A stretch of 64,000 nt of DNA from positions 30,255 to 94,254 of the forward strand of contig JAHFLF010000001.1 in NCBI GenBank assembly GCA_023255625.1. Reading direction: 5' to 3'. How positions within the stretch are numbered: the first letter of the stretch is position 1; each line of letters starts with the position of its first letter. Source of the DNA: Candidatus Harrisonbacteria bacterium (GTDB taxonomy: Bacteria > Patescibacteriota > Minisyncoccia > UBA6257 > 1-14-0-10-44-23). Positions 8,130-60,470 of the stretch are shown one piece after another. Made by a program: the position numbers and the translations under genes. Below the pieces are notes generated by a model, which saw nothing but the letters and a program-made list of their open reading frames with translations, was not told where the DNA came from and did not search any database.

Positions 8130-8260
8130 TTGTAAATAGCCCACACGGTGCTGTGCAGATCGGCACCGGCTATCTGCGCGTGGTCGCGCAGCGCCTGCTC
8201 TCGGCCCCTTTGGGCCTGCGAGAGTGCCGCCTAGCACAGCACCGTGTGGGCTATTTCTTC
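8130..8260. repeat. Nested palindromic element, copy 1 (outer arms aaatagcccacacggtgctgtgc / gcacagcaccgtgtgggctattt; conserved core GGCACCGGCTATCT..GCGCCTGCTCTCGGCC..GGCCTGCGAGAGTGCCGCCTAGC)
   Basis: The core is shared with 50110..50260. It overlaps the 3' end of lepA. Confidence 0.6.
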
Positions 8261-10284
8261 AAAAGTTCCTTAAACACGCTCGCCGGGATGCGCACCGCAC
8301 TTTGCGTCCCGCGCTCCTCAAGTCGTTCCTTGCCGCGCGCCTGCTTTTTCCAGAGCTTCATTTTGCGCGTTCTGTCGCCGCCGTTTTTACCAAAATTACC
8401 CAGCTCTTTTGCTTCAGCCGGAATAGTTTCACGGGCAATCACGCGGCCGCGATGACTCGCCTGAATCGCCTGCTTAAACTGCAGTTTTGGCAGTAAATCC
8501 TTGAGCTTTGCGCAGGTGGCTCGTGCCTCGTGCTCAATTTCTGATTTCGGTAAAATGCGCGTGAGCCCGGGCACCACAGTTTCTGCCACCAAAATCTCCA
8601 TCTTATCAACATCGCCTTTTTCATAGCCCACGACTTCGTAGCTTAACGAACCATACCCCTGCGATACTGATTTTAGCTTGTCATCAAAGTCGGCGATCAA
8701 ATCAGAAAGTGGCAGCGCCGCCTTGATGAGCATCCTGCCGGAGGAGGCGGCACCAATAGTCTCTGTCGTGACGCCGGAAATACGATACAAATCTTTCAGC
8801 TGCAAAATCGGGCCAAGATACTGCATCGGCGTTAGAATTTCAATCCTGGTCATCGGCTCATACACCTGCAGCGGGTCATTTGGAAAATCTTTCGGATTCT
8901 TAATCCAAAACCAGCCATTTTCGCCATCAACCGGATCCAAGTTGTCGGTCTTCTCGTGCGAGCGTCCTTTGTCGCTGAACATTTGCACCTTATATGCCAC
9001 CGACGGAAAAGAACTCACGACCGGCACATCAAATTCTCTGTCCAGTCGCTCGGCCGCAATCTCAAAATGCAGCTTACCTAAAAATCCGCCCTTAAATCCG
9101 CGCCCTAACACTTCACTGGCATCCGGCTCAAAACGAATAGCCGAGTCAGAAAGGCGCAGTTTTGCCAGAGCCTTTTTAAATTCATCATAATCTTCGGGAT
9201 GTTCCGGGTAAAATGAAACAAAGACAACCGGCCGCGGCTCACGATATCCGGGTAGGGCTAATTCCAGTTGATCGGTTGCAGTCACTGCACGAACATCGCT
9301 GATCGTGTCGCCAATCTTCACCTGGCCTGGATCTTTAATACCGGTTGCGATGTAGCCCGTCTCACCATTTTTAATTGACTGCCCCGGAACTAGATTCGGC
9401 TTAAGGTAGCCGATGTCTTTTGTTTTCACCTCTGCACCCGTTGCCACCATGTGATAGGTCGTGTTGAGTTTAAACTCTCCGCTAAACACACGGATGTAGG
9501 CGATCACGCCGCGGTGTTCGTCGTACTGGGAATCAAAGATAAGGGCGCGCGCGGCTTCTCCCTTTCCTAAAGGGAGGGGACCGCTTGCGGTGAGGGATTT
9601 AGATTCAAAATCCCTCCCTCCTGCTGGAGTACTCCCTTTAGGAAAGGGAGAAGGGGGCGGGATGCGCTCAACAACAGCCACAAGAAGTTCGGGCACTCCT
9701 TCGCCGGTCTTGCCGGAAACTTTTAGAATTTCATTGGTTTCAATGCCAAGCAAAATACTGATCTCCTCCATCGCCTGCTCAACCTGTTCCGGGGTCGCCA
9801 CATCAACTTTGTTGACGGCGCCGATGATTGTGAGCCCGGCACGCTTTGCCATCTCATAGTTATACAAAGTCTGCGCCTGCACCCCCTGCGTTGCGTCCAC
9901 CAGCAAAATTGCTCCTTCAACGGCTGCGAGCGCCCGACTGACCTCGTAACCAAAATCGCTGTGACCGGGCGTATCTATCAAATTCAAGACATACTCGTCT
10001 GAATTTGATAACTTAGGACTTAGGACTAAGGACTTAGGACTTTCTGTTCCGTCTCCGTTCTTAGTTCTAAGTTCTAAGTTCTTAGTCGGCAAATGGTACA
10101 CCATCCGCACCGGTGTCATCTTAATCGTAATCCCCCGCTCCCGCTCCAAATCCATTGAATCCAAAAACTGCGCCTGCATGTTGCGCTTCTCAATCGTCTT
10201 AGTGATTTCCAGCATTCTATCGGCCAAGGTTGATTTCCCGTGGTCGATGTGCGCGGTGATGACAAAGTTGCGGATGTTCTGCAT
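8251..10284 (-). CDS. lepA: Elongation factor 4 (LepA), carrying two in-frame palindromic insertions
   Basis: N-terminus NIRNFVITAHIDHGKSTLADRMLE. Motifs DSMDLERERGITIK, LIDTPGH and the LepA C-terminal domain. 677 aa is longer than the typical ~600 aa because of two insertions. Confidence 0.9.
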   Translation of the reverse strand: MQNIRNFVITAHIDHGKSTLADRMLEITKTIEKRNMQAQFLDSMDLERERGITIKMTPVRMVYHLPTKNLELRTKNGDGTESPKSLVLSPKLSNSDEYVLNLIDTPGHSDFGYEVSRALAAVEGAILLVDATQGVQAQTLYNYEMAKRAGLTIIGAVNKVDVATPEQVEQAMEEISILLGIETNEILKVSGKTGEGVPELLVAVVERIPPPSPFPKGSTPAGGRDFESKSLTASGPLPLGKGEAARALIFDSQYDEHRGVIAYIRVFSGEFKLNTTYHMVATGAEVKTKDIGYLKPNLVPGQSIKNGETGYIATGIKDPGQVKIGDTISDVRAVTATDQLELALPGYREPRPVVFVSFYPEHPEDYDEFKKALAKLRLSDSAIRFEPDASEVLGRGFKGGFLGKLHFEIAAERLDREFDVPVVSSFPSVAYKVQMFSDKGRSHEKTDNLDPVDGENGWFWIKNPKDFPNDPLQVYEPMTRIEILTPMQYLGPILQLKDLYRISGVTTETIGAASSGRMLIKAALPLSDLIADFDDKLKSVSQGYGSLSYEVVGYEKGDVDKMEILVAETVVPGLTRILPKSEIEHEARATCAKLKDLLPKLQFKQAIQASHRGRVIARETIPAEAKELGNFGKNGGDRTRKMKLWKKQARGKERLEERGTQSAVRIPASVFKELLKK
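9556..9653. repeat. Nested perfect palindrome inserted in frame within lepA
   Basis: cttctccctttcctaaagggag ... gggatttagattcaaaatccc ... ctccctttaggaaagggagaag. Encodes a PFPKGSTPAGGRDFESKSLTASGPLPLGKGE-type insertion in a conserved LepA loop. Confidence 0.7.
10010..10090. repeat. Inverted arrays of 7-mer tandem repeats ([TTAGGAC]x4 ... [GTTCTAA]x4) inserted in frame within lepA
   Basis: Read from the sequence. Encodes an extra PKSLVLSPKLSNSDEY segment between the G1 and DTPGH motifs. Confidence 0.7.
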
Positions 10285-12642: not shown

Positions 12643-13200
12643 CTATTGCAAGATATGCACATCGTGCACCGTTGGATATGTGTGAAGCTCCGCCTTACTA
12701 AACCAGAGCGGAACCTCGTGCGCGGCATCTTTCGCATCTGAAGAGGCGTGGATCAAATTCTTCACAACAATCTTCATTGCATCAGCGTATGCATAGCTCA
12801 CATGGGCAAAATCCCCGCGAATCGTCCCTGGAGCAGCGGACTTCGGTTCAGTTGATCCAACAATCTTACGAACATTCTCAATCGCATTAACGCCCTCAAC
12901 GCACAAGGCAAGAACTGGACCAACTTGTAAAAAATCAACCAATGCGTTGCGAACATGCTCGCCACGGCGAATTGTAATATCTTCAGTGTAATGCTTACGA
13001 GCAAACTCACGGTCTGCAAAAAACATCTTCATACCGATAATCTTAAATCCGGCATCTTCAAAACGAGTAATAATTTTACCCATGATGCCGCGCTGCACCG
13101 CATCCGGCTTTAAAAGAATCAGCGTCCGCTCAATCGGAGACTTTGAGACCTGCGCCGCTGACTCAATTTTTGCATTAACCTTTTTTGCTGTTTTCGCCAT
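12643..13200 (-). CDS. ndk: nucleoside diphosphate kinase with N-terminal extension
   Basis: IERTLILLKPDAVQRGIMGKIITRFEDAGFKIIGMK matches the NDK core. Confidence 0.85.
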   Translation of the reverse strand: MAKTAKKVNAKIESAAQVSKSPIERTLILLKPDAVQRGIMGKIITRFEDAGFKIIGMKMFFADREFARKHYTEDITIRRGEHVRNALVDFLQVGPVLALCVEGVNAIENVRKIVGSTEPKSAAPGTIRGDFAHVSYAYADAMKIVVKNLIHASSDAKDAAHEVPLWFSKAELHTYPTVHDVHILQ

Positions 13201-13226
13201 AATGTTTAATATATTAAATTGCTATT

Positions 13227-14624
13227 TTACTTCTTAATCTGTTTCTCGTCCAGCTTCAAACCGAATTCACGCAGCCGCTCCGGTGAAATCAGTGTTGGCG
13301 CGTTCATCACTGATGGATGACCTTTGGCCGTCTGCGGGAAGGCCTGCACCTCGCGCAGGTACTGCTCGCCGGTCAGGATCATGATCATGCGCTCCACGCC
13401 TGAGCCAATACCTCCGTGCGGCGGCGCGCCGAAACTAAAGGCTTCGAGCATGTGACCAAACTCTTTTTGAATCTGCTCCTCGCCGTAACCCATCGTTTTG
13501 AAAGTGGCCTTAAGCACGTCCGGACGATGCGCGCGGATACTGCCGCCACCAACCTCAAAACCGTTACAGACTAAATCGTACTGCTGCGTCGTGATCTCTT
13601 CGATATGCTCGCCTTTCAAATGCCACTCTAGGTGTTCCGGTGCGGGCATCGAGAACGGGTTGTGCGTGAAAGTCCAGTTGCCCTCTTTGTCTTTCTCAAA
13701 GAACGGAAAGTCGGTAACCCAGGCAAAGGCCAAAACGCCAGCGGCTTTTTCCGCTTCGCTGCGCATATCAAATTTATCAGCACCATATTTCGCCACCGCC
13801 TCCTTGAAAGTGAAATGTGGAAATGGCTTTTGCTTGATAGTCTTGCCCATCGCTTCGACAACCGTGATCATCAGTCCCTCGACAAGTTGCATCACCTCTT
13901 CACGCGTCACAAAGCTCATCTCGATATCCACCTGCGTATGTTCAAAACCGCGGTCGGCACGCAGATCTTCGTCGCGGAAACAGCGCGCGATCTGAAAATA
14001 CCGCTCAAAACCGGCTACCTGAAGCAGCTGTTTGTACTGCTGCGGACTTTGCGGAAGTGCAAAAAACTGTCCGGGATACATGCGGGACGGCACAACGAAG
14101 TCGCGCGATCCCTCTGGCGTCGTGCTCGTAAGATATGGCGTTTCAATTTCGGTGAACCCCTGCGCAAACAGATACTCACGCACTCGTTGCACATATTCGC
14201 TACGAATCTGAATATTTTTATGCACGCGCGGACGGCGCAGGTCAAGATAACGATATTTCAAACGGTTTTCTTCCCCAATGTCGTGGCCGTCGGTATCAAT
14301 GGGAAACGGCGGAGTCTGCGCCTCGTTTAACACCTCTAACTCTGCAACACCAAGCTCAACAGTGCCGGTCGGAATGTCTTTGTTGATCATTCCCTCTGGC
14401 CGCCCCTTGACCTCGCCCTTCACACGAATGACCCACTCCGGACGCAATTTGCCCGCAGTCTCATACGCGGCACTCTTAGGCGTTACCACCATTTGAATAA
14501 TCCCGCCGCGGTCGCGTAGATCCAAAAAAATCAGCTTACCGTGGTCGCGACGGTTTGCCACCCAGCCGGCTAATTCTACTGTCTCACCAATTTTAGAAAC
14601 TGTTTCAGTTGTAAGAATACGCAT
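13227..14624 (-). CDS. aspS: aspartate--tRNA ligase (short form, class II)
   Basis: Motif 2 FQIARCFRDEDLRADRGFEHTQVDIEMSF and motif 3 GAPPHGGIGSGVERMIMIL. N-terminal OB fold GWVANRRDHGKLIFLDLRDRGGIIQ. Confidence 0.8.
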   Translation of the reverse strand: MRILTTETVSKIGETVELAGWVANRRDHGKLIFLDLRDRGGIIQMVVTPKSAAYETAGKLRPEWVIRVKGEVKGRPEGMINKDIPTGTVELGVAELEVLNEAQTPPFPIDTDGHDIGEENRLKYRYLDLRRPRVHKNIQIRSEYVQRVREYLFAQGFTEIETPYLTSTTPEGSRDFVVPSRMYPGQFFALPQSPQQYKQLLQVAGFERYFQIARCFRDEDLRADRGFEHTQVDIEMSFVTREEVMQLVEGLMITVVEAMGKTIKQKPFPHFTFKEAVAKYGADKFDMRSEAEKAAGVLAFAWVTDFPFFEKDKEGNWTFTHNPFSMPAPEHLEWHLKGEHIEEITTQQYDLVCNGFEVGGGSIRAHRPDVLKATFKTMGYGEEQIQKEFGHMLEAFSFGAPPHGGIGSGVERMIMILTGEQYLREVQAFPQTAKGHPSVMNAPTLISPERLREFGLKLDEKQIKK

Positions 14625-14956: not shown

Positions 14957-15856
14957 TTACTGCAAATGAAAAACTTGCAGCGTATTTGCCGTCGGAATTA
15001 CCTCAATAATCCCGTCTTGATCGGCTCGCGTAATTTTTTGCGCAAATTTCCCTAACCGCTGGAGCGCCGACTGCGTCGGATGACCATACGTATTTTTACC
15101 AACCTCAATTGCGGCTAAGGCCGGCGTAACCTCGGCTAAGAAATTCTCGCCCGACGAAAATCGCGAACCGTGATGCCCCACCTTCAGCACATCAACATCA
15201 AGATTATATTTTTTAACAAGCTCCTCCTCCACATTCATGCCGATATCGCCGGTATACAGCGCCTTGATCTGCGGCGAATCCAAGAGCACGACGACGCAGG
15301 TGTCATTGAGCTCGCCACTCACAATATCCTGTTTTGAGGGGCCGATAATTTTTAGCGTCGCGTCCCCAATTTTAATCGCGTCTCCTTCAGTTGCCTGAAT
15401 ATATGGCACTGAATGCTGCTTCAACTGCTTAATAAGCTCTGGATATTCAGCAATTGGAGCTTTCCGCCCATTGCCGATGAACGCGCCAACCTCATATTTC
15501 TTTAAGAGATCAATAAACCCGCCAAAATGATCCAGCTGGGGATGCGTCATAACGAGCAGATCAATATACCGATCTTGCGGCGGTAAAATTTTTTCCAAAT
15601 TTGCCAGCAACTTTTTCCCGTCCGGCCCGCCGTCAATAACAACATGCACTCCGCCTGGAAGTTCAATCAGCGAGCTGTCGCCCTGACCAATATTTAAAAA
15701 ATAAAGTTTTGGAACCGTACTGGCGATAGCTGCGTGACCGGAAAATAACCACAGCCATAATACGGCGTCGGCAATCACCGCGACAACGAGACCGAGCATG
15801 ATAACGCTAGTTTTCTTTTCGTGAAAAATCATAATGCGGCTTTTTTCCTCCTCCAT
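14957..15856 (-). CDS. comEC: ComEC/Rec2 C-terminal metallo-beta-lactamase domain protein
   Basis: LYFLNIGQGDSSLIELPGGVHVVIDGGPDG ... LLVMTHPQLDHFGGF ... VGHHGSRFSS is the MBL fold of ComEC. It overlaps the upstream ComEC membrane ORF by 28 nt in another frame. Confidence 0.75.
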   Translation of the reverse strand: MEEEKSRIMIFHEKKTSVIMLGLVVAVIADAVLWLWLFSGHAAIASTVPKLYFLNIGQGDSSLIELPGGVHVVIDGGPDGKKLLANLEKILPPQDRYIDLLVMTHPQLDHFGGFIDLLKKYEVGAFIGNGRKAPIAEYPELIKQLKQHSVPYIQATEGDAIKIGDATLKIIGPSKQDIVSGELNDTCVVVLLDSPQIKALYTGDIGMNVEEELVKKYNLDVDVLKVGHHGSRFSSGENFLAEVTPALAAIEVGKNTYGHPTQSALQRLGKFAQKITRADQDGIIEVIPTANTLQVFHLQ

Positions 15857-17463
15857 AGTATAAACCCGGTAAGCGCACCGTAGTAGATAAGCGCCAGAAC
15901 AACCGAAAAATTTTCAGTTGTAAAACCAAAATTGATTTTAGAAAAAATGTTGATAACGCCAAGCTCGTAACCCAAAAAAATCCGCGCCGGTAGTGCGGTA
16001 AAAAATGCCACATGTGATCCAAGCAGACTCGCGCCAAGAACAATGACGCCGAGCACCATCGTCGCCGGGATGAAACTAAGCAGTAAAACATTGGTCAGGA
16101 TACTGATTGGGGTGATAAAACCAAAATTCATCATCAGAATCGGCAAAACTGCAATCTGCGCAGAGAAAGTAGTGATTAGATTCTCGCGCCATTTCAGCAC
16201 GCCTGGCTTTTTCTTTAAATCAAGACGCAGGAGCGCAGCCAGCGCCGGTGCGACATAGACAATGCCAATGAGTGCGGCGAAAGAAAGCTGAAAACCAATA
16301 TCAAAGGCGAGCAGACGCGGATTGATAAGAATCATCAGTAGCGCCGTAAACACAATGGCATTACGGGCAACATAGACGCGCTCTGATCGCTCGGCAACAA
16401 CCATAATCGTCGCCATAATCGCGGCGCGCACCACCGAGGCCTCGGCACCGGTCATGAGCACAAATGCGATAACCGCAGCGATTGAAAACCAGAGAGCTCG
16501 CTTGCGGAGCAAAAAGAAGCCGAAAAGCGCCGTAAACCAGTTAAGCACCGTGGAGATGTTGTAGCCCGAAAGCGCAACCAAGTGCGTCGTGCCGGTTATT
16601 TTTAATTTCTCGCTAAACTCTTTTGAAAATCCGCTGCTTTTGCCAATCACGAGTCCGGTCATGAGCGTCGCCTGTTCGCCCGGCAAGATTTGCTCAAAAG
16701 TATGCCGGACATAATCCCGAGCTTTATATAATACTGCAAAAAACCGCGAACCCTGGTCATGCGCGGTTATTTCTAATTTTTTAGGAAACGACATCACCGC
16801 GCCAATGCCTTCTTTGGCGTAATAGCCAGAACTCGGACCCTCAATCGGCTTAAGTACGCCGGAAACCGAAACAACATCGCCATATTTTAATTCCGGAAAC
16901 GGTTTTGCGTACAGCCGAAAAGTACTACTTAACAATTCGTCAGAATTGTTAAGTGAAGAAATCTTGATATCCACCTGTTGCCCGCTATCAATTTGTGAAA
17001 CGCGCTTAACCATTCCCGTCAGCTCAATCTGCTGGCCAATAGGCGCGGTAAACTGCCCGGCAAGGTGCTGGTCGTAAAAAACATAATACGAGCCGCCAAG
17101 TGCCGCGGCGAAGATAAGCAGTGCCGCGGTTTTTTTCAGGTTCGGGCGGCGAGGATTACTTTTGCCACTTTGCCCCGCTTTCTGGGCGGAGTCTTGTCGC
17201 ACAAATTTACTAGACCCTGCGGGTATTACTAAATTTGCTTGACTGCGATCCGCCTCAGAATTCGTGCCAGATTGCCTTAAAGTATCCTCGCCGCCCGAAC
17301 CGAGCAAAAACAAAAAAACCGACCCCAATCCGCAAACTAACCAACTCGCCAACAACCAATTCCCAGTACCGCCCAACGCGCCCGCCTCGGCGGGTAAACT
17401 AGCACACAGCACCCCCACCAGAAACAAGCTCATCGCCCAGAATGCCGCATTGTAAAATTTCAT
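15829..17463 (-). CDS. comEC: ComEC/Rec2 competence membrane channel domain protein (N-terminal and competence domains)
   Basis: 544 aa, multi-TM, with LVALSGYNISTV...RAAIMATIMVVAERSERV competence-domain motifs. Confidence 0.75.
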   Translation of the reverse strand: MKFYNAAFWAMSLFLVGVLCASLPAEAGALGGTGNWLLASWLVCGLGSVFLFLLGSGGEDTLRQSGTNSEADRSQANLVIPAGSSKFVRQDSAQKAGQSGKSNPRRPNLKKTAALLIFAAALGGSYYVFYDQHLAGQFTAPIGQQIELTGMVKRVSQIDSGQQVDIKISSLNNSDELLSSTFRLYAKPFPELKYGDVVSVSGVLKPIEGPSSGYYAKEGIGAVMSFPKKLEITAHDQGSRFFAVLYKARDYVRHTFEQILPGEQATLMTGLVIGKSSGFSKEFSEKLKITGTTHLVALSGYNISTVLNWFTALFGFFLLRKRALWFSIAAVIAFVLMTGAEASVVRAAIMATIMVVAERSERVYVARNAIVFTALLMILINPRLLAFDIGFQLSFAALIGIVYVAPALAALLRLDLKKKPGVLKWRENLITTFSAQIAVLPILMMNFGFITPISILTNVLLLSFIPATMVLGVIVLGASLLGSHVAFFTALPARIFLGYELGVINIFSKINFGFTTENFSVVLALIYYGALTGFILWRRKKAAL

Positions 17464-22828: not shown

Positions 22829-22857
22829 CTAGTCGCTTATTCGCGCGAATTAGAGAA
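22829..22857 (-). promoter_or_regulatory. Operator-like site ACTAGTCGCTTATTCGCGCGAATTAGAGA between the ArsR stop and the 21124..22827 paralog start
   Basis: Same motif as 1127..1155, directly abutting the ATG. Confidence 0.5.
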
Positions 22858-23110
22858 TAGAAATAATATGTTTTGCAGTCGCTGGCGGTGCGTCGCTCAA
22901 CCGATAAAACATATTCAAGCTCTGCTGATCCCGATCTAAAATTTCAGCGGCTCGCAAAATACCAAGATGCTTTGAAGTGGCTTTGAGCGAAAGGTTAAGC
23001 TCGTCGGCTATCGCGGAAACAGACGCGCGCCGAACGCGTTTTAAATATTTTAAAATTGCAAGCCGCCTTGCATTTGCTAGCGCTTTGAGAGTTTTCTCAA
23101 GCTGTCGCAT
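22850..23110 (-). CDS. ArsR/SmtB-family HTH transcriptional regulator (86 aa, no Cys, no obvious metal site)
   Basis: LKALANARRLAILKYL...VSAIADELNLSLKATSKHLGILRAAEIL is the ArsR-type wHTH. A perfect 32-bp palindrome lies in its promoter. Confidence 0.75.
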   Translation of the reverse strand: MRQLEKTLKALANARRLAILKYLKRVRRASVSAIADELNLSLKATSKHLGILRAAEILDRDQQSLNMFYRLSDAPPATAKHIISIL

Positions 23111-23145
23111 AGTACATTCACTATATCATACCGCCTCCAACCTGT

Positions 23146-23177
23146 ACTAGTCGCTTATTCGCGCGAATAAGCGACTA
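23146..23177. promoter_or_regulatory. Perfect 32-bp palindrome ACTAGTCGCTTATTCGCGAATAAGCGACTAGT in the promoter of the ArsR-family gene (putative autoregulatory operator)
   Basis: Read directly from the sequence. It is centred ~50 nt upstream of the ArsR ATG. Half-site copies occur directly upstream of two Cys-rich paralog start codons. Confidence 0.6.
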
Positions 23178-23183
23178 GTAGAA

Positions 23184-24326
23184 TTAAAGCGCAGATTTAA
23201 TGACTCCTCCGCCAAGCATCTTGCCAGCTTTGTCATAGAAGACAGCAGACTGGCCGGGGGCGACAAATTTTTGCGGTCGGTTAAAAACAATCTTGCAAGT
23301 TTTATCTGATGATTGATAGAGGGTCGCCGAAAAAAGCGGCTGTCGATACCTAACTCTAGTAAAAACCTTTACGCCACTATTCGCCCATTCGCTCGAATTA
23401 GAGATAAGTGGATTTATAAAATTAACAGTAGAGAGTTGAACCTCGTGCGAATATAATGAATCTTCATTTTCTGCGGCAAGTGTAACTGTATTTTTCTTTA
23501 TATCTTTTGAGGCGACATACAGCGGCACAGGAGAACCACCAACGCCTAGCCCTTTACGCTGGCCAATCGTAAAATGATGTGCGCCAGAGTGCTGGCCGAG
23601 TATCTTCCCGTGCATATCCAGCACCTTGCCCTTCTTTGGCGGCACAAATCTGTCCAAAAATTCCGGTAATTTTATCTGACCTAAAAAGCAGACGCCCTGC
23701 GAATCTTTTTTCTCGGCATTGGGGAGCTTATACTTTTTTGCGAGCCGACGAACATCAGTTTTTTTAATTAAATCTCCAAGCGGGAACAAACAATGCGCCA
23801 GCTGCTTTTGAGTCAGCATCCAGAGGAAGTAGGACTGGTCTTTACTGGAGTCTCGTGCAACATGTAACGTGTAGCGTGTAGCGCCGGAAGATTTATTCAT
23901 TCCCTTCTTTTTATCCAATGTTACATGTTTCGCGTTATACGCTACACGACGACGCACATAATGCCCGGTAGCCACAAAATCCGCGCCCAACTCCATCGCT
24001 CGTTCAAAAAACATCCCGAACTTAATTTCGTGATTGCACATCACATCCGGATTTGGCGTAATGCCCTTGCGGTACCCGTCAACCATATACTGCACCACCT
24101 TCTCGCGATACTCCTTTTCAAAATCAAATACATAAAATGGAATACCGAGCGTCTCCGCCGCCCGCCGGGCATCCTCGGCATCCTGCTCCGCGCATCCATC
24201 AACATTCCAGCAACGCAAATGAACGCCAACGACATTGTATCCTTGGTCTTTTAAAATCCCAGCGGTAACCGAGGAGTCCACGCCACCGCTCATGCCTACG
24301 AAGACTGTTTTATGATTTTTTTGCAT
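23184..24326 (-). CDS. mnmA: tRNA-specific 2-thiouridylase
   Basis: PP-loop VFVGMSGGVDSSV, then KDQSYFL and CFLGQ motifs. Contains a ~20-aa insertion relative to canonical MnmA. Confidence 0.85.
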   Translation of the reverse strand: MQKNHKTVFVGMSGGVDSSVTAGILKDQGYNVVGVHLRCWNVDGCAEQDAEDARRAAETLGIPFYVFDFEKEYREKVVQYMVDGYRKGITPNPDVMCNHEIKFGMFFERAMELGADFVATGHYVRRRVAYNAKHVTLDKKKGMNKSSGATRYTLHVARDSSKDQSYFLWMLTQKQLAHCLFPLGDLIKKTDVRRLAKKYKLPNAEKKDSQGVCFLGQIKLPEFLDRFVPPKKGKVLDMHGKILGQHSGAHHFTIGQRKGLGVGGSPVPLYVASKDIKKNTVTLAAENEDSLYSHEVQLSTVNFINPLISNSSEWANSGVKVFTRVRYRQPLFSATLYQSSDKTCKIVFNRPQKFVAPGQSAVFYDKAGKMLGGGVIKSAL

Positions 24327-26959: not shown

Positions 26960-27102
26960 GGGCAGTTTATAGGTTATAGTTTATAGGTTATAGTCTGGAA
27001 AAACAAGATGAAAAAGTTGACCAAAATCCCGAAATCTCTTACAATTCTCCCATGTTTATTTTTACACTATCCACTATAACCTATCAACTATAAACTTCTC
27101 CC

Positions 27103-29622: not shown

Positions 29623-29633
29623 GCACCAGTTGG

Positions 29634-29680
29634 TTAGTTGGTTAGCTAGTTAGTTGGTTGTTGGTTAGCCGACAGTTGGT
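29634..29680 (-). repeat. 5'-UTR repeat CTAACCAAC..CCAACTAACTAGCTAACCAAC directly upstream of the ATPase 27778..29622 start
   Basis: The same 21-mer core occurs in sense orientation directly upstream of recR (60428..60470) and at 46750..46790. Confidence 0.5.
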
Positions 29681-42132: not shown

Positions 42133-43578
42133 CTACTTAAACTTATCCAGCACAGACTCATCGGCATAAATCGGCAGACCGGCCGGAGCACCCATCTTGC
42201 GGGATTCAACCCGTTGCGTGAGCGGCCCGGTAACAACGAGCGTGGTCGGTGGATGAAAAAGTGTCGCCAAAATTTCACTGGTCAAAATCGTGTTGGCCGA
42301 ATTCCACCAGTTAAATGTGTGCGAGGCGATAAATTGACCGGAAAATTCATGAATGCCCGGTTCACGCTCGCGCCACAAGTGTAGCATTCGATTCTTGCGA
42401 GCACGACGGCGAGTTCGCTTAAACACATAAGGCGGATCAAACCAGCCGGGCTTGGTGTTCATGCCGTCGTTAAAGACCATCGCATTTAAGTCGGCTGCAT
42501 TGTATTGGTTAAATGCACCCTTGATAGCCCGGCGAGGCACGCGGTCCGAGAAAAGATTTTTGGGTGAGATATAGAGCAGCTTAATGTTAGTGTCAAAAGC
42601 CGGTTTACTCAAATTCCGCTCAACCGCTTTCAATATATCTGTCTGTCCGGGTGATTTTTGCAGAAGCGATGTCTTTAAGGCCAGCGCTAGATCATCGCCG
42701 CTCGCGCCGTGCGCCGCCGAGCCCTTGGCAATTTTTGGCGTGCGCAGGTCATCAACAATATGCTGATACTGCTCGCCCCAACTTAAAAAAAGCGGAGAGA
42801 TAACATACTGCACGCCGATAAATTCCTCCGGTCGGATACTGGCCATTGCCTCCATAAATGCAGCCATCGGATCAACCTGATACTCCTCGGTGCTGCTCTC
42901 AAACTGCATATAAGTTTTAATCGGGAAGGCCGGATCTTTACTCAAGACAAAACCATTGGCATACAAATCCTTGCCCTGCAATTCCAGATCGAGGATGCTG
43001 TGTGGAACCCACTTTTCGGTATAATCCTCAACCACCGGCACGATCTCAACCTCCGGATAAGCGGCAAAAAGAGCCGCCTTGACAATCGGCACATACGGTT
43101 CATAAATTTGGGCGTAAAAATGAATCTCGCCGCCCAAACTAACAATCTCAAATGTAAACCAAATCGTCATTTCTCCGAGCAGATATTTTTCACCGAGATG
43201 CCCACGCCAGTTACCCATGCCGGCAATCGCATGAAAAAATTGATCCATACTGCGCGGGCTTCTGGTAATTTCCCGCGGCATCTTCAGTTCAAGCAGCTTA
43301 TATTTTAGCGAAGTCTCGAATGTCCGGTTCCGCCAATATATCCAAAGCGACCGCGTAATCGGCCAAGCAATCGCAAAAAAAATTATCGGCCAGTTTATCT
43401 TAAAAAATGGCGTGATCGCCGCGAAAACAGTTTGGACACCTTGAGCGATGGACATGGGGGAATTAGAAGGATTAGAAGTACTAGGGCAACTAGAAAGATT
43501 AGCGGGGCTAGTTAGTATTATACAACAATATTGGAGACAAAAAAATCTCCCCCTAACACATCTAGCATCCTCTAGCAT
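42133..43578 (-). CDS. hypothetical protein, N-terminally membrane-anchored. The true start is probably the Met at ~43455.
   Basis: The ORF-track start lies inside a 10-bp tandem repeat array. A TATAAT box and a hairpin lie just upstream of the internal Met (MSIAQGV...). Confidence 0.5.
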   Translation of the reverse strand: MLEDARCVRGRFFCLQYCCIILTSPANLSSCPSTSNPSNSPMSIAQGVQTVFAAITPFFKINWPIIFFAIAWPITRSLWIYWRNRTFETSLKYKLLELKMPREITRSPRSMDQFFHAIAGMGNWRGHLGEKYLLGEMTIWFTFEIVSLGGEIHFYAQIYEPYVPIVKAALFAAYPEVEIVPVVEDYTEKWVPHSILDLELQGKDLYANGFVLSKDPAFPIKTYMQFESSTEEYQVDPMAAFMEAMASIRPEEFIGVQYVISPLFLSWGEQYQHIVDDLRTPKIAKGSAAHGASGDDLALALKTSLLQKSPGQTDILKAVERNLSKPAFDTNIKLLYISPKNLFSDRVPRRAIKGAFNQYNAADLNAMVFNDGMNTKPGWFDPPYVFKRTRRRARKNRMLHLWREREPGIHEFSGQFIASHTFNWWNSANTILTSEILATLFHPPTTLVVTGPLTQRVESRKMGAPAGLPIYADESVLDKFK

Positions 43579-43645
43579 CCTCTAGTTGCCTCTAGCATCC
43601 TCTAGTTGCCTCTAGTTGCCTCTAGTTGCCTCTACTCCCGGCCTC
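43561..43645. repeat. Tandem array of 10-bp units (TCTAGCATCC / TCTAGTTGCC, about 8 units)
   Basis: Read from the sequence. It lies upstream of the probable true start and TATAAT box of gene 42133..43578. Confidence 0.7.
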
Positions 43646-43655
43646 TATCTCCCGG

Positions 43656-44708
43656 CTAAACCGCTGCGTATTCCCCGCTTGGCATCCGCTTAAAGTACTT
43701 CTTGTTCTGCAAATTAAAGAGAATCGTCGTCTCTTTAAATATCCGGTGTTTGAGAACTTTGGCAATCAAATCCTTTGGCTTGAGCGGGCCATCTTGTTTG
43801 AGAATGTGCAAAAGTATATCGCGAATCGTACCGGCTGGAAGTGCGTCGTGATCACGCAACGAGTAAATACCGCGGCCCACAAGCAGAAAGCGCTTGTCTT
43901 TAATGAGCTCGTTGTGAATCGTCTGCGTGTTGGTCTTTTTCTTCGGGCGCAGCGTGCGAATCTCGCCGGCAATATCGTCAAAGTGCAGCGGCTTAGTCGC
44001 CTTCTTTAAAATCAAATAAATCCAGTCACGGCTAACCTTTGGGCTGACCTCCGGCCACTCCGTCAAACCAAAATCACCGTACAGGTTGCTGCCGAACTTC
44101 TTGCTGATATTCAAATAGTGCCGGGCCACCTCGGTCTCCAGCTTGTGGAGCTGGCGCACCTCGTGGAAAAACTGCTCAAACTTTTTCTCGTTCAGAGTCT
44201 CATGTTTACGCGCGCGCAGATGCGCAACCAGCTCCTCCAAAAATTCAACGGCTTTTTGCTGATGGCTCTCGGAAAGATGCCAGTGGCTAGAAAGCTCCTC
44301 GTCATCTCGGTGATAAAGCACCTCACCGGAAATCTCTAAAAGAAAACGAACCTGATTGGCAAAATTAACCGGCAGATCCTTGCCGCCATCAGCAAACTGT
44401 TTAATATCAGAAAGCAGATGATCCTCGCGGCGCACGCCACCTGTTTTTGAAAGTTCGGCTTTTGCAGCAGCAACCAGGGCGGCCAAATCACTCTTACTGG
44501 CACGCTTACGAACTTCGGTAATCGCCGAGGCCTCAATCTGGCGAATGCGCTCGCGGGTAACATTAAAAGACTTGCCGAGTTCAGCAAGTGTCTGCTCCTC
44601 GCCGGTGTCCAGTCCATAGCGCTTGGTCAAAACCTTGCGCTGGCGCGCGTCCAGTCCGGAAAAAATTTGCTCAATAATTTGTGCGGTTGTTGGAGTTATC
44701 TGCGGCAT
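43656..44708 (-). CDS. sigma-70 region-4 HTH protein fused to a C-terminal HARE-HTH-like domain
   Basis: LDARQRKVLTKRYGLDTGEEQTLAELGKSFNVTRERIRQIEASAI is sigma70_r4. The C-terminal LHFDDIAGEI...GRGIYSL resembles the HARE-HTH of the RNAP delta subunit. Confidence 0.6.
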   Translation of the reverse strand: MPQITPTTAQIIEQIFSGLDARQRKVLTKRYGLDTGEEQTLAELGKSFNVTRERIRQIEASAITEVRKRASKSDLAALVAAAKAELSKTGGVRREDHLLSDIKQFADGGKDLPVNFANQVRFLLEISGEVLYHRDDEELSSHWHLSESHQQKAVEFLEELVAHLRARKHETLNEKKFEQFFHEVRQLHKLETEVARHYLNISKKFGSNLYGDFGLTEWPEVSPKVSRDWIYLILKKATKPLHFDDIAGEIRTLRPKKKTNTQTIHNELIKDKRFLLVGRGIYSLRDHDALPAGTIRDILLHILKQDGPLKPKDLIAKVLKHRIFKETTILFNLQNKKYFKRMPSGEYAAV

Positions 44709-46749: not shown

Positions 46750-46790
46750 CTTACCAACTAACCAACAACTAGCTAACCACCTAACTCTTC
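46750..46790 (+). repeat. CCAACTAACCAACAACTAGCTAACCACCTAAC copy overlapping the 3' end of secF
   Basis: Read from the sequence. Confidence 0.4.
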
Positions 46791-47701: not shown

Positions 47702-47805
47702 AAAGAGTAATTTTTAATTTCTAATTTTCAATTTTCAAACAATGATTTAATTTCGAAATTTCTAAATTGAAAATTGTTTAGAAATTAGAAATTGAGAATT
47801 AGAAA
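47702..47805. repeat. AT-rich palindromic intergenic repeat (secD-secF spacer)
   Basis: aatttctaattttcaattttcaaacaat ... attgtttagaaattagaaattgagaattagaaatt; homologous to 54545..54642. Confidence 0.65.
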
Positions 47806-49092
47806 TTATTTTGCAACTTTTTTCTCGTGCACAAAAATCTCCAGCAATGTGCGCGTAACGGTAATCGCTGTAAACATTGAAACGATGACTCCGAGAAGCA
47901 GCGAAAGTGCGAAGCCACGAATAAAACTCGAAGTGAAGCTGTACAGCACAAGCGAGGTAATCATCGTGGTTATGTTGCTGTCGCGGATGCTTGGCCAGGC
48001 GCGGCGGAATCCTTCGATAATCGCCGTGGTCTTGTTAACCCCCTTCTTCATCTCTTCACGGCTGCGTTCAAAAATTAGAATGTTCGCGTCAACCGCCATG
48101 CCGATAGACAAAATAATTCCGGCGATACCGGCCAAGGTCATCGTGATGCCAAACAATTTAAAGATGCCGAGTAGAAGCAGTGTGTAGATGACTAGCGCGA
48201 TCGCAGCAAAGAAACCCAGCCAATGGTAATAGATGATCATGAAAAGAATCACAATCAAGGCGCCAATCAGACCGGCAAAAAGCGTGCGCTGCAAACTGTC
48301 TGCGCCGAGCGTTGCGCCAATCGTCTGTTGGCTTAGGAGCTTGAGCGGAGCGGCTAGGGCGCCATCCTTAAAACGATTGACTAAAGTGCGCGCCTCCTCC
48401 AATGTGAACTGCCCCGTAATCTGTGCGCGGCCGCCGCTGATGCGCTCGTTCACTGTCGGCGCGGTTAAAAGTTCATTGTCCACAAAAACACCCAGCCGTT
48501 TACCGACATTGGCTGCGGTTAAATCCTCAAAAAGTTTCGCGCCCTCGCTGTCAAACTCTAGAAAAATTTCCGGACGATTTGAAACACTGTTAAAATTTAA
48601 CGAGGCGCTCTTCACATAACGGCCGGTCAAGCTGGTCGGCACGAAAGCCGGCTGATCAGATTGTAATTCAATCTCCTTGCCATCTGCGGTAGTTGCTTTA
48701 ACCGGCTGCTTGGTCGTCCCCTCCTGTGAAAAAACTAAAAACGGCGTCTGGCCAATTTGCGCGATGGCCTCGCTGGTATCTTTAATACCGGCGATATCCA
48801 CAATCAAACGATATGAATCCCCCTGCTTGGCGGTCAATACCTGCGGCTCGCGTACGCCGCTAGAATTCACGCGCGCTTCAATGCGTCCGCGGATTCCGTC
48901 TAAAACCGACGCCCGATCTGAATCAACCACATTGCTCATGTCAATTTCATAGACCAGGTGGCTGCCACCGACTAAATCCAGGCCAAGCCGCCATGGCCGG
49001 GTACTACCCCAAAAATCAGGGTGAATAAAAAAAGCCGAAAGCACGGAGCCGACTACCACGAGACCGATTAGTAAGAGAGATCCTTTGCGCAT
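47806..49092 (-). CDS. secD: protein translocase subunit SecD
   Basis: 428 aa with SecD TM core LGATLGADSLQ...GIAGIILSIGMAVDANILIFERSREE. Confidence 0.8.
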   Translation of the reverse strand: MRKGSLLLIGLVVVGSVLSAFFIHPDFWGSTRPWRLGLDLVGGSHLVYEIDMSNVVDSDRASVLDGIRGRIEARVNSSGVREPQVLTAKQGDSYRLIVDIAGIKDTSEAIAQIGQTPFLVFSQEGTTKQPVKATTADGKEIELQSDQPAFVPTSLTGRYVKSASLNFNSVSNRPEIFLEFDSEGAKLFEDLTAANVGKRLGVFVDNELLTAPTVNERISGGRAQITGQFTLEEARTLVNRFKDGALAAPLKLLSQQTIGATLGADSLQRTLFAGLIGALIVILFMIIYYHWLGFFAAIALVIYTLLLLGIFKLFGITMTLAGIAGIILSIGMAVDANILIFERSREEMKKGVNKTTAIIEGFRRAWPSIRDSNITTMITSLVLYSFTSSFIRGFALSLLLGVIVSMFTAITVTRTLLEIFVHEKKVAK

Positions 49093-50109: not shown

Positions 50110-50260
50110 ACATTTTCTATAAAAATGTAACCTGTAAATTTCTCCGCAGAGCGGCACCGGCTATCTCTTTCTGCTGAAAAAGCGCCTGCTCTCGGCCTCT
50201 TCGGCCTGCGAGAGTGCCGCCTAGCGGAGAAATTTACAGGTTACATTTTTATATTACCCT
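50110..50260. repeat. Nested palindromic element, copy 2 (30-bp perfect outer arms tataaaaatgtaacctgtaaatttctccgc / gcggagaaatttacaggttacatttttata; same conserved core as copy 1) bounding high-GC island 2
   Basis: Read from the sequence. The inner stem shows a compensatory change (GCCC..GGGC in copy 1 against GGCC..GGCC here). Confidence 0.6.
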
Positions 50261-50426
50261 ACACCCACACAGAATTTTTATTTGAAATGGCGGGTTCGCA
50301 GCAGGATGTGCTGCTAGCGGCGGCTCTCGGACGGCGACGGCCGGAGAGCGCAGGGCAATTTTTTAGCAAAAAAATATGCCCGACGCCGTCTGCAGCACAT
50401 CCTGCTGCAAACAGCGGAAAATACAA

Positions 50427-52672: not shown

Positions 52673-54544
52673 CTATTTCTTTTCCTCGGCGGCTGGCCCG
52701 GGCTGTGGCTCACCCGCAGGCGGCTCCTGTCCACCTTTGCCATACATCGCCTGGCCGATTTTTTGCATCTCGGCGGAGAGCTGCTCAACCTCTTTCTTGA
52801 TTCCCTCCGCAGTACCGGTTTCTTTCGCGGTTTTCAAATCAGCAATTCTTTTTGTTACGGCATCCTTAATATCTGCCGGCACTTTATCACCGCCATCTTT
52901 GAGCGCCTTCTCGGCTGTATAAATGAGCTGTTCAGCCATATTCCGACTCTCGACTAATTCTTTTTTCTTCAAATCTTCGGTGCGATTCGCCTCGGCGTCG
53001 CGTTTTAATTTCTCAATTTCTTCTTTTGATAAAGCCGTCGAGGCCTCTATGCGCACCGACTGGCTCTTGCCGCTGGCTTTGTCCTTCGCGCTGACGCTGA
53101 CAATGCCGTTAGCATCAATGTCAAAAGTAACCTCAACCTGCGGCATGCCGCGCGGCGAGGGCGGAATCCCGTCCAAAATAAAACGCGCCAGCGTCTTGTT
53201 GTCGGCCGCCATCTCCCGCTCGCCCTGAAGCACATGAATCTCCACCGAAGTCTGATTGTCAGCCGCGGTTGAAAATACCTGGCTTTTGGTTGTAGGCACG
53301 GTCGTATTCTTTTCAATCAGCTTAGTGGAAACACCGCCAAGAGTCTCAATGCCAAGTGAGAGCGGCGTAACATCGAGCAGCAAAACATCCTTGACATCGC
53401 CCTGCAAAATTCCGGCCTGAACTGCAGCGCCGGCGGCCACTACCTCGTCCGGGTTAATACCCAGATGCGGCTCCTTTCCAAAAAACTTCTTGACCGCTTC
53501 TTGCATCGCTGGCATGCGAGTCTGACCACCAACCAAAATAACTTCATTAATATCGGCTACTGAAAATCCGGAATCCTTCAAAACCTTCTCAACGATTGTA
53601 ATCGAACGCCGAATCTCCTCGCCAACCAGCTCCTCGAGCTTGGCCCGGGTCATCTTCATCAGCAGATGTTTCGGCCCGGAGACGTCCGAAGTAATGTACG
53701 GAATATTAATCTCTGCCTCAATCGAGGTCGATAGTTCGTGCTTCGCCCGCTCGGCGGCCTCCTTCAGCCGCTGCACTGCGAGTGGATCTTTGCTAACATC
53801 AATTCCGTCCTGCTTCTTATATTCAGCTGCAATATATTCCTGAATCTTCTTGTCAAAATCATCGCCGCCCAGGTGCGTGTCTCCGCCCGTGGATTTAACC
53901 TCAACAACATCATCACCAACTTCTAGAACCGAGACATCAAAAGTGCCACCGCCAAAATCATAAACAACTATTTTCTCATTTTTCTTTTTATTAAAGCCGT
54001 AGGCCAGCGCAGCGGCCGTCGGCTCGTTAATGATGCGCTTGACGGTCAGCCCGGCAATCTCTCCGGCATTTTTAGTTGCCTGGCGCTGGCTGTCGTCAAA
54101 GTAGGCCGGCACGGTGATAACCGCTTCAGTAACCGGCTCGCCCAGACGCGCCTCTGCATCTTGTTTGAGTTTGCCGAGCACCATGGCGGAGATCTCCTCC
54201 GGCTTTTTCCAATCCGCGCCAATTTTTACCTCTACTCCGCCGGTTGCCGAACCGCGAATCTCATATGGCAGCCACTTCGCATCTCGAGCCACCTCCGGAT
54301 CGCTAAACTTGCGACCGATCAGGCGCTTCACCGAAAAAATCGTGTTCTTTGGATTTGTCACCGATTGCCGCTTAGCCAAAAGACCGACAACGCGCTCATT
54401 ATTTTTACTCATCGCCACAATTGATGGCGTCGTCCGATTACCTTCAGCATTTTCCAAAATTTTTGGCGCACCGCCCTCCATGACCGCCACCGCCGAGTTA
54501 GTAGTGCCCAAATCTATACCGATTATTTTTGACATAATTTTCAA
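52673..54544 (-). CDS. dnaK: chaperone DnaK (Hsp70)
   Basis: [26 protein letters not shown], and the full Hsp70 architecture. Confidence 0.95.
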
Positions 54545-54642
54545 TTTTTAATTTCTAATTTTTAAACAATAATTTAATTTCTTAATTTCAAAATTCTAAA
54601 ATTGAAAATTGTTTAGAAATTGAAAATTTGAAATTAGAAATT
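54545..54642. repeat. AT-rich palindromic intergenic repeat (dnaK-grpE spacer), homolog of 47702..47805
   Basis: Shares ttgaaaattgtttagaaatt and the overall hairpin architecture. A half-copy lies at ~12540..12572. Confidence 0.65.
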
Positions 54643-55221
54643 TCATCTCGCCAGCTTCACCTTAGCCGCTCGAATAACTCTTCCATTACTACTATAACCG
54701 GGGACTAACTCTTCTAAAATCTTGCCGGAGAGTTTCTCGCGTTCCGGATCATCCGGAGGAAGCTCCACCTCCAGCATTGCCTCATGAAATTCCGGATTAA
54801 ACCGGTCGCCACGAGCTACTACAATCCGCTCGATGCCTTTCTTGCGTAAGACCTCCTGCAGCTGCCCACTGATCATGAGCATTCCTTTATATTCTTGACT
54901 CTCTTTATCAACCGCATTCATGCCCAGATTAAAACTGTCTAGAACCGGTAAAAGGTCTTTTGCGAAATCAATAGCCGCGTAGCCGGCAAATTGCTCAAGT
55001 CGCTTACTCTCTTCTTTTTTGTAATTAATAAAATCAGCTGCAGCCCGTTTCCAGGAATTTAAATACTCATCGCGCTGCTTCTCGCACTCGGCGAGTTTGC
55101 CCGCCCCTGAATTGGCGGGCAAGTCCGCCGACCCGGCGTCAGGTTTGTTTTTTCCGGTTTCGGCCGGGCCGGCCGAAACCGGCTGATTGTCATTTTGCTT
55201 CGCTTCGTCGCTCATACTCAT
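54643..55221 (-). CDS. grpE: nucleotide exchange factor GrpE
   Basis: 192 aa with DFINYKKE and LLPVLDSF GrpE motifs, upstream of dnaK in the same orientation. Confidence 0.8.
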   Translation of the reverse strand: MSMSDEAKQNDNQPVSAGPAETGKNKPDAGSADLPANSGAGKLAECEKQRDEYLNSWKRAAADFINYKKEESKRLEQFAGYAAIDFAKDLLPVLDSFNLGMNAVDKESQEYKGMLMISGQLQEVLRKKGIERIVVARGDRFNPEFHEAMLEVELPPDDPEREKLSGKILEELVPGYSSNGRVIRAAKVKLAR

Positions 55222-60427: not shown

Positions 60428-60470
60428 TCCCCGCCAACTAACTAGCTAACCAACGACTAACTAACCTGCC
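60428..60470 (+). repeat. CCAACTAACTAGCTAACCAAC motif in the recR 5' region
   Basis: Read from the sequence. Confidence 0.5.

Follow-up and report, generated by a model that had tools for sequence, protein, structure and literature searches.

The DNA analysed here, called the window, is a stretch of 64,000 nucleotides (64 kb) from a Candidatus Harrisonbacteria bacterium. Four of its genes, lepA, mnmA, cysS and the gene for ComEC, carry insertions made of repeat DNA, and these are real, in-frame repeat insertions at five sites, two of them in lepA. The best named relatives of the LepA and CysS proteins belong to Candidatus Harrisonbacteria, Paceibacterota and the ‘Patescibacteria group’; on sequence comparison the host genome appears as a member of the Patescibacteria, or Candidate Phyla Radiation (CPR), of a Harrisonbacteria/Paceibacteria-like type. 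A first-pass annotation had reported the insertions in lepA, mnmA and cysS, and repeat statistics as well as alignments to relatives and to EF4 structures bear them out. The ComEC segment is a fifth case beyond its list. Its description of the recipients as essential genes fares less well, as E. coli requires neither lepA nor mnmA as an essential gene.

The lepA gene (8251-10284, minus strand) encodes the elongation factor EF4, a protein of 677 residues whose reading frame stays intact across both inserts. Pfam recognizes the GTP_EFTU, EFG_C and LepA_C domains, and the match to EF4 in the PDB has E=1e-129. The alignment with the solved EF4 falls into three blocks which leave LepA residues 65-93 and 217-244 unaligned.

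The first insert (site 1; 10000-10092, minus strand) adds about 29 residues (~65-95) in the β2-β3 turn, between the motifs VRMxY and YxLNLIDTPGH, and is missing from the homologs P0002-P0007 and others. In order, it comprises a left mirror, an array of heptamers, a spacer, an inverted array and a right mirror. The first arm (10057-10086, minus strand) reads in the sense direction as the units ACTAAGA, ACTTAGA, ACTTAGA and ACTAAGA followed by AC, and Tandem Repeats Finder (TRF) reports it as GTTCTAA x4.3. After a 16-nt spacer (10041-10056, minus strand; sense GGAGACGGAACAGAAA), the second arm (10011-10040, minus strand) continues with GTCCTAA, GTCCTTA, GTCCTAA, GTCCTAA and a final GT; the TRF span of this arm is 10011-10042, with ACTTAGG x4.6. 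Its single TAA to TTA variant is exactly the in-frame unit. The two arms are 74-88% complementary, and their array pattern matches six times in the window against 0.14 times expected. Furthermore, all four units of one arm carry a common G-to-A change, which indicates concerted evolution of the array. In the sister clade, site 1 of the homolog P0008 is occupied by ACTTAGG/CCTAAGT heptamers as in the window lepA. For both lepA segments, folding z-scores against shuffled sequences range from -5.7 to -8.4.

The second insert (site 2; residues ~213-244; 9555-9653, minus strand) is a palindrome of five hairpins, found by covariance model R1 with 78.8 bits. Its hairpins follow in sense order as H1 (9632-9650), H2, H3 (9592-9616), H4 and H5 (9558-9576). 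The outer arms (9555-9576 and 9632-9653; arm sequence CTTCTCCCTTTCCTAAAGGGAG) measure 22 nt and are 100% complementary, and the whole element folds with -64 kcal/mol (z -6.5 and -8.4 versus shuffles). It lies in the linker between the G domain and domain II, after the IPPP motif; the proposal that both lepA inserts fall between conserved GTPase motifs is wrong for this one.

This palindrome is not private to lepA. Its 19-nt core CTCCCTTTYCTAAAGGGAG, expected 0.01 times per window, matches at least 117 genome loci in a species-representative genome collection, where about nine matches would arise by chance according to our own estimate. Among the matches listed, core-bearing genomes include Saccharibacteria, Taylor-, Nomura-, Moran- and Parcubacteria, Dehalococcoidia, Syntrophia, Betaproteobacteria and others; several genomes hold copies of the family on separate contigs, and in 92 of the 127 listed matches a second module, GAGGGATT, lies at most 45 nt from the core. 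Copies from the CPR have a common layout: H1 (CTCCCTTT..AAAGGGAG), a variable hairpin, H3 (GGAGGGATTT..AAATCCTCC), another variable hairpin, and H5 (CCTCCTTTA..AAAGGAGG). RNAalifold, applied to 11 copies, recovers H1, H2, H3 and H5, and the changes seen in H2 are compensatory. About 25 of the 127 listed matches are inside long open frames and most of the others are intergenic. Clear in-frame copies were seen in lepA (in the window and in the 69%-identical lineage L002, at the identical site 2) and in genes for MurB, PriA, a glycosyltransferase, a CN-hydrolase and Dus; depending on orientation, the copies in the latter five encode SPF(P/S)KGS or PL(G/E)KGE. At site 2 of the homolog P0023 lies the same five-hairpin element. 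The second lepA insert is thus a member of a family of ~100-nt five-hairpin elements dispersed in the CPR and other phyla. Searches of the window with 3-mismatch patterns and with a covariance model from 11 CPR copies, which take up, for the window, the suggestion to look for further copies in the genome, found none but that of lepA. No consistent direct repeat was found flanking the copies, and Rfam, at gathering and permissive thresholds, returned only generic miRNA-like hairpin noise for the element. A mobile ribosome-binding-site cassette was also considered, as the 3′ arm AAAGGAGGA resembled a Shine-Dalgarno sequence before ATG in a few CPR copies; it was rejected because an open reading frame (ORF) of at least 80 residues starts at most 45 nt away in no more than 4 of the 22 full copies. 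MurB shows further extra segments. In a Saccharibacteria MurB (L065:1794-3408), there are several repeat-derived in-frame inserts (PPQAGGEE.., SPFPKGST..), and the MurB of L006, the closest relative with synteny (13177-14292), has a 20-residue insert and an N-terminal extension, neither of which occurs in the window MurB.

The mnmA gene (23184-24326, minus strand; 380 residues) also has an inverted pair of arrays, as at lepA site 1. Its insert of 23 residues (23856-23947, minus strand) consists of two inverted blocks of four heptamers each, with the unit TGTARCR: one arm at 23919-23947, a 34-nt spacer at 23885-23918 and the inverted arm at 23856-23884. The inverted repeat spans 23868-23884 and 23932-23948, and TRF places an array at 23863. 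In cysS (56243-57697, plus strand; 484 residues), the array at 56848-56879 (plus strand) is direct: (AGTCGCG AGTAGCG)x2 AGTG, that is, four AGTMGCG heptamers or a 14-mer repeated 2.2 times with 100% identity (TRF, at 56848-56878). It has no inverted partner and adds seven residues relative to the nearest insert-free relatives. Accordingly, the view that all these segments are hairpin-forming repeats stands for mnmA and for both lepA inserts, and fails for cysS. The ComEC insert (17137-17301, minus strand, within 15829-17463) adds 54 residues in frame; it is a long nested inverted repeat with arms at 17129-17184 and 17256-17311 and an 18-bp perfect core. Two kinds of repeat DNA are present: the string of five hairpins of ~100 nt, and blocks in which a heptamer centred on a stop codon is repeated about four times, and which are single or form inverted pairs around a spacer.

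A few observations adjoin these genes. At 10005-10095 and 23855-23955, the antisense RNA is more stable than the mRNA strand (-36.7 versus -24.6 and -32.6 versus -25.9 kcal/mol), and where the heptamer inserts of lepA and mnmA have mismatches, one strand shows G.U and the opposite strand C.A. A second private insert of eight residues, PDATAGAG, lies in cysS (56678-56701, residues ~146-153) and occurs in none of 22 aligned relatives. The palindromic motif ACTAGTCGCTTATTCGCGCGAAT.., found at 1127-1160, 22829-22860 and 23145-23180, adjoins gene starts and lies directly 3′ of mnmA.

The distribution of the segments among relatives was examined by alignment. In an alignment of 27 LepA proteins, relatives that are 80-89% identical (P0002-P0007, P0009, P0011 and others) have neither insert, and the 26 relatives mostly lack the lepA inserts. 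The codon alignment with L006 shows clean gaps at the inserts, and L006 has neither the mnmA nor the ComEC segment. The ortholog comparison which the first-pass annotation had called for thus shows insertions rather than ancient loops; the outcome that would have refuted its reading, extra segments shared by all related genomes, is not what is seen. In a neighbour-joining tree of LepA, the window protein (P0001) is nested among insert-free sequences, while P0023 is placed far from it, beside the insert-free P0025. Since carriers occur in other clades as well, several separate gains are a more parsimonious account than a long series of precise losses; vertical inheritance with loss was set aside on the basis of this tree, in which the exact sister of the window protein has low bootstrap support. 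Among 120 LepA homologs surveyed, 47 have a long loop at site 1 (median 8 residues) and 26 a long loop at site 2. Of 121 MnmA homologs, 18 have the corresponding loop at its minimal length of 14 residues, and 85 have a loop of 24 residues or more. In CysS, the same loop is filled by different inserts in 8 of 23 aligned sequences, the window protein included. On these alignments, all five segments are lineage-specific insertions, and the loops are recurrent hot spots in Patescibacteria lineages. The P0001 protein is identical on three contigs from NCBI and ENA (the contig examined, L001, comes from a single ENA sample), insert-bearing P0008 was found in one ENA and one JGI data set, and insert-bearing P0023 in two NCBI assemblies. 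Recurrence across independent data sets makes an assembly artefact unlikely.

How ribosomes would pass these segments can be read from the heptamers themselves. Seven coding arrays with 29 units were compared: the two arms of lepA and the array of cysS in the window, two arrays of L004, and one each of L124 and L125. Where the core of a unit is in frame, the stop codon has been lost in nine out of nine cases (TAA to TTA, TAG to TCG or GAG, TAA to CAA or CAG), whereas TAA, TAG or TGA persists in 17 of the 20 units that are out of frame. The openness of coding arrays is given by construction; the informative point is that the deviant units coincide with the in-frame positions. This argues that the arrays began as stop-rich repeats of the non-coding type and that ribosomes traverse them. 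The inserts are therefore predicted to be translated and retained in the protein, with insert-spanning peptides such as SPFPKGSTPAGGR and TKNLELR. An AlphaFold2 model built on the 27-sequence alignment, modest overall (mean predicted local distance difference test, pLDDT, 68.7), gives residues 72-94 and 215-242 a pLDDT below 50 and no secondary structure. Both lepA inserts are thus predicted as unstructured loops.

Similar repeats are abundant outside of genes. Arrays with periods of 7 and 14 are common in the window, and most of those detected by TRF are intergenic leaders which abut start codons (21090, 26964/27067, 29628, 39621 and 60436). The heptamers vary (ACTTAGG, TGTAGCG, AGTAGCG, TTATAGG, TAATTTT and others), and nearly every unit holds TAA or TAG, so that three units close all three frames. 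Paired arrays at 26964-26994 and 27067-27096, made of ACTATAA/CCTATAA, are sense-strand leaders of divergent genes for an NTP-transferase and efp. In L006 (1214-1349), these arrays are more conserved than the spacer between them, which holds TTGACC-17 nt-TACAAT. An AT-rich palindromic element of 4+4 TAATTTT-type heptamers is found at 47708-47808, with a second copy at 54535-54643; each copy fills the entire gap between co-directional genes, secD/secF and grpE/dnaK, respectively. In metagenomes, ACTNAGG arrays of three or more units occur in at least 120 contigs (L126-L245), mostly high-GC and apparently non-CPR. They often form inverted pairs which give long hairpins (for example L135, L154, L176 and L219), and a few are in frame, such as PQSSVLSPQS in a MutS2-like ORF of L219. 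The AGTAGCG array of the window cysS recurs at lepA site 1 of L124 with similar flanks (CAGTCG..AGTAGCGAGT..AGTG.AGCC); such blocks are thus common to different genes and genomes. In the same relative, an ORF with a weak LAGLIDADG_3 match overlaps the lepA start (L124:219-1058).

Other repeats lie at gene boundaries in the window. Short-period arrays at 43561-43656, 29628-29668, 46753-46785 and 60436-60465 consist of 10-mers (CCTCTAGTTG/TCTAGCATCC) and 8-mers (AGTTGGTT/ACCAACTA), with CA-rich leaders of the AACTAAC type on the sense strand. A larger structured element is found at 8134-8256 and 50118-50253 (also 50294-50412), and its first copy overlaps the lepA stop codon. It has a Y-shaped, conserved core of ~75 nt (GGCACCGGCTATCT...CTCTCGGCC..GGCCTGCGAGAGTGCCGCCTAGC) and an outer stem of 25-32 bp, whose sequences are wholly different between the two copies while complementarity is kept (z -10 to -15). 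Rfam gave no match for the copies at 8134-8256 and 50118-50253.

The junctions of lepA site 1 have a peculiar structure. On the right (9976-10010, minus strand), the insert ends in a stretch (10000-10010) that matches the host LNLI codons (9976-9986) exactly as a reverse complement, with arms of 11 nt and a loop of 13 nt. On the left (10087-10107, minus strand), the host sequence CGGATGGT, which encodes RM, is mirrored as ACCAT[TTG]CCG; this mirror is weaker, as it reaches 8/8 only with a bulge of one codon (3 nt). The feature is much cleaner in all the other site-1 inserts whose available DNA has intact palindromes. In the ORF-less inserts of L249 and L250, the arms measure 13/12 and 10/14 nt. 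In L246, L247 and L248 (lepA DNA of P0076, P0061 and P0038; L246:6001-8256, L247:1001-3382, L248:1001-3439), the arms measure 8-12 nt. The mirrors track the synonymous codons of each host: V-R-M is written with GTCAGA, GTCAGG or GTGCGT, and each version is mirrored. Genes L246-L250 hold three to five perfect inverted repeats of such size, two of which sit exactly on both junctions; the insert-free L006 has one, elsewhere in the gene, and L004 and L124 have none. At the protein level, a histidine after RM.Y (RM.[YW]H, where CAT mirrors ATG) is present in 13 of 47 insert-bearing and 1 of 72 insert-free LepA proteins, and [DN]SE before Y[IV]LNL in 13 of 47 versus 0 of 68. A search for arms of at least 8 nt with loops of at most 24 nt found no host-mirroring at lepA site 2, mnmA, cysS or the cysS of L125. 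No consistent target-site duplication flanks the window inserts; the site-1 flanks are duplicated in inverted orientation.

In other lineages, the same site holds a complete gene. Nine of the 120 LepA homologs contain at site 1, in frame, a complete PDDEXK_3 (PF13366, E=1e-33) / GxxExxY (TIGR04256) domain, as an insert of 156-171 extra residues with the frame kept on both sides. On both sides of the nuclease ORF lie inverted arrays of short CGCAGA-type repeats, as well as mirrored junctions. P0024 has an ORF-less version at site 1 with arm peptides as in the nuclease inserts. The identities of inserts and hosts are incongruent (r=0.35): in one pair, the host parts share 81% identity and the inserts 54%, and in another the values are 68% and 78%. 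Horizontal movement of the nuclease inserts is argued from this lack of correspondence. The PF13366 family is of unknown function and is listed with ‘multiple transfers’ (PMC3424549), and in the literature searched we found no account of its in-frame insertion. The idea of a selfish insertion mechanism without intein, put forward in the first-pass annotation, fits these relatives. Among the 40 window ORFs scanned, Pfam detects no transposase, which was the annotation’s own proposed check, no PDDEXK_3 and no homing endonuclease, with the exception of the LAGLIDADG domain of the DnaB intein. The latter is a true intein with an endonuclease domain, within a DnaB of 904 residues (57703-60417); DnaB of the relative L125 has 445 residues. 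The 5′ end of the dnaB ORF, as annotated, contains a perfect 9-mer repeated 4.4 times (57749-57788).

We consider it fairly probable that in the window repeat DNA of a non-coding type has inserted, in a lineage-specific way, into permissive surface loops of conserved proteins and is translated there, with entry probably through breaks and fold-back. Such loops are hit repeatedly across related lineages, and only insertions with a length that is a multiple of three survive. In coding copies, the heptamer unit with the in-frame stop is mutated, and the insert is then carried as a predicted disordered extension of the loop, as in the Rickettsia palindromic elements. Entry was probably not of the classical cut-and-paste type and may have gone through a DNA break at which hairpins or fold-back structures formed as intermediates, or through template switching; the site-1 edges, being inverted copies of adjoining host codons, would be the mark of such events. 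That template switching can produce perfect hairpins in one step is documented (bioRxiv 10.1101/2023.04.19.537475). As for the short inserts built of array, spacer and array, they may be ORF-less relatives of the nuclease-bearing element, as the PDDEXK_3 gene lies at the same site between similar repeat arms. Several points weigh against this account. Each element is single-copy within the 64-kb window, which lends no support to the earlier suggestion of an ‘active’ element; the 40 ORFs scanned include neither a transposase nor a PDDEXK_3 gene, and target-site duplications were not found in the window. The heptamer units differ between loci, so that a local de novo origin also fits. Host-mirroring was found at lepA site 1 only and is degraded or absent in L004 and L124. 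Finally, the link between ORF-less and nuclease-bearing inserts consists of a shared site and architecture without sequence similarity, and translation is read from the frame of the DNA.

The main rival is a purely endogenous origin, in which slippage builds the heptamer arrays and template switching, with its published precedent, builds the hairpins, with no mobile element or nuclease. It accounts well for the junction arms as exact reverse complements of adjacent host codons that follow synonymous differences, for the concerted G-to-A change in four units of one lepA arm, for the perfect 14-mer duplication of cysS, for units that differ by locus, and for the lack of transposase and target-site duplication in the window. 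In contrast, it does not explain the ~100-nt five-hairpin element with conserved modules at 117 or more loci in unrelated places, the AGTAGCG block that recurs, similarly flanked, in cysS of one genome and lepA of another, or whole foreign nuclease ORFs at the same site with a phylogeny incongruent with that of the host; we regard it as rather unlikely. A narrower version of the insertion reading can be offered tentatively, as a possibility we would sooner doubt than adopt: the site-1 insert, and possibly that of mnmA, might be an ORF-less member of an undescribed class of in-frame nuclease elements of Patescibacteria, which home to loops and mirror their flanks. Autonomous members would encode a PDDEXK_3/GxxExxY nuclease expressed inside the host protein, and the targets of homing would be particular sites in conserved genes that code for loops. 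The arms of such elements would consist of short stop-containing tandem repeats, and integration through hairpins or fold-back would leave inverted flank copies of 8-14 nt at both junctions and no direct duplications. The window inserts (69-93 nt) contain no nuclease domain; in the one at lepA site 1, the position in the β2-β3 turn, the inverted short-repeat arms and the mirrors at both junctions are as in L246-L250.

Selection for function, be it mRNA or antisense hairpins which tune lepA and mnmA or useful protein loops, seems improbable to us. Covariation maintains the hairpins of the palindrome family, the intergenic arrays upstream of efp are more conserved than the spacer between them, and the antisense strand of both heptamer inserts folds much better than the mRNA strand. 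However, presence is patchy among close relatives, unrelated sequences fill the same loop in different lineages, the inserted peptides are predicted to be disordered and the element has no Rfam family. It is hardly conceivable that the segments are ancient lineage-specific loops which merely look repetitive, or assembly artefacts: nothing speaks for this beyond the occurrence of the exact sequences in one genome only, while the nearest relatives lack the segments, repeat statistics are far above chance, P0001 is found on three contigs and the P0008 and P0023 inserts are each found in two independent data sets. Removal of the inserts from the RNA, or their bypass by the ribosome, is just as remote. 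The hairpins which straddle both site-1 junctions superficially recall exon-intron pairings, but every insert is in frame and open, the nuclease inserts of 156-171 residues included, and stop-core heptamers are mutated only at would-be in-frame stops, which makes sense only if ribosomes read through.

Insertion of repeat DNA into loops is of wider interest. It is a notorious feature of CPR proteins that they contain additional segments whose origin is not known, and repeat DNA re-entering permissive loops is one concrete source. A simple filter, namely a length that is a multiple of three and a mutated in-frame stop unit, would turn non-coding repeat DNA into protein sequence, with consequences for CPR genome annotation, alignment, phylogenomics and structure prediction. 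The mirrored junctions and in-frame nuclease genes suggest an integration mechanism that is perhaps undescribed in bacteria, and hint at what the GxxExxY/PDDEXK_3 family, which is widespread and uncharacterised, might do in the cell. We found no description of such insertions in CPR/Patescibacteria in the literature searched.

[quoted passage not shown] MITEs are defined by terminal inverted repeats, target-site duplications and a parent insertion sequence (PMC5896051, PMC10969869). Bacterial MITEs within ORFs, such as the Coxiella QMITE, ERIC and BOX (PMC5896051, PMC10969869), resemble the present inserts as small, structured, non-autonomous elements that yield in-frame fusions. Terminal inverted repeats are present in the window (CTTCTCCCTTTCCTAAAGGGAG and its reverse complement, and the array arms of lepA site 1 and mnmA). 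Each element occurs once in the window, and the palindrome family is multi-copy in other genomes. In contrast to MITEs, no target duplication or parent transposase was found, and the flanks of lepA site 1 are copied in inverted rather than direct orientation. The earlier proposal of a MITE-like class therefore holds as far as dispersed repeat families are concerned, the palindrome with its 117 or more loci among them, and does not extend to MITEs in the strict sense.

REP sequences and their paired forms (REPINs) are GC-rich hairpins of 20-40 bp with a GTAG or CGTC tag, present in high copy and associated with a TnpA-like gene, the REP-associated tyrosine transposase (RAYT). The lepA palindrome measures ~100 nt, has five hairpins and no terminal GTAG tag, and there is no Y1 transposase among the 40 ORFs scanned. 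GTAG is present in some heptamers (AGTAGCG, TGTAGCG) and not in others. The STRR (short tandemly repeated repetitive) sequences of cyanobacteria are heptanucleotide tandem repeats, which also occur inside the RNase P RNA gene. Vioque (1997) is the work cited on them in PMC2858038. TAACTGA repeats of Beggiatoaceae, cyanobacteria and Bacteroidetes give stops in three frames in the forward orientation (PMC4679880), and GGGNATC repeats show a preference for about four units (PMC4692102). All three groups share with our arrays tandem 7-nt units, about four in number, that are mostly intergenic leaders by start codons and are occasionally found in genes. Here, unlike there, forward stop-core arrays lie in the middle of ORFs with the in-frame unit ‘detoxified’, often as inverted pairs around a spacer. 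None of the window units is identical to the named families CCCCAGT, TTGGTCA, CAACAGT, TAACTGA or GGGNATC.

Coding palindromes are also known from mitochondrial genes of Nematomorpha (PMC6649704). As in the window, long inverted repeats lie in protein-coding genes and both arms are translated; they differ in their setting in animal mitochondria, in being much longer and perfect, and in having no tie to dispersed repeats. Inteins and homing endonucleases share with our case in-frame selfish DNA, the re-invasion of conserved housekeeping sites and, in the relatives, a nuclease within the host ORF. The inserts described here nevertheless have no splicing motifs and would stay in the mature protein, and the nuclease is of the PDDEXK_3/GxxExxY type. 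In LepA, Pfam finds EF4 domains only and no intein domain, and the inserts are short (23-32 residues). Hairpin-end footprints described in eukaryotes comprise P nucleotides (hAT/RAG), usually of 1-4 nt, and snap-back insertions in alternative end joining. The likeness consists of inverted flank copies directly at the junction, whereas the arms found here measure 8-14 nt, occur on both sides, are bacterial and are known from sequence alone.

Together with the STRR/TAACTGA heptamer repeats, the closest parallel is offered by the Rickettsia palindromic elements (Ogata et al. 2000). According to the summary in PMC10969869, these are palindromes of ~150 bp in ten families, nearly half of which lie inside ORFs, in frame. 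Both systems comprise palindromes of ~100-150 bp which are intergenic as well as in frame in unrelated housekeeping genes. In each of them the inserts are translated, the protein tolerates them at its surface, and a transposase is not known. By analogy, the window palindrome would work like these elements, and membership in the families RPE-1 to RPE-10 is very unlikely given a host within the Patescibacteria. The elements also differ in build and reach: the one in lepA is a string of five small hairpins that is found in many phyla.

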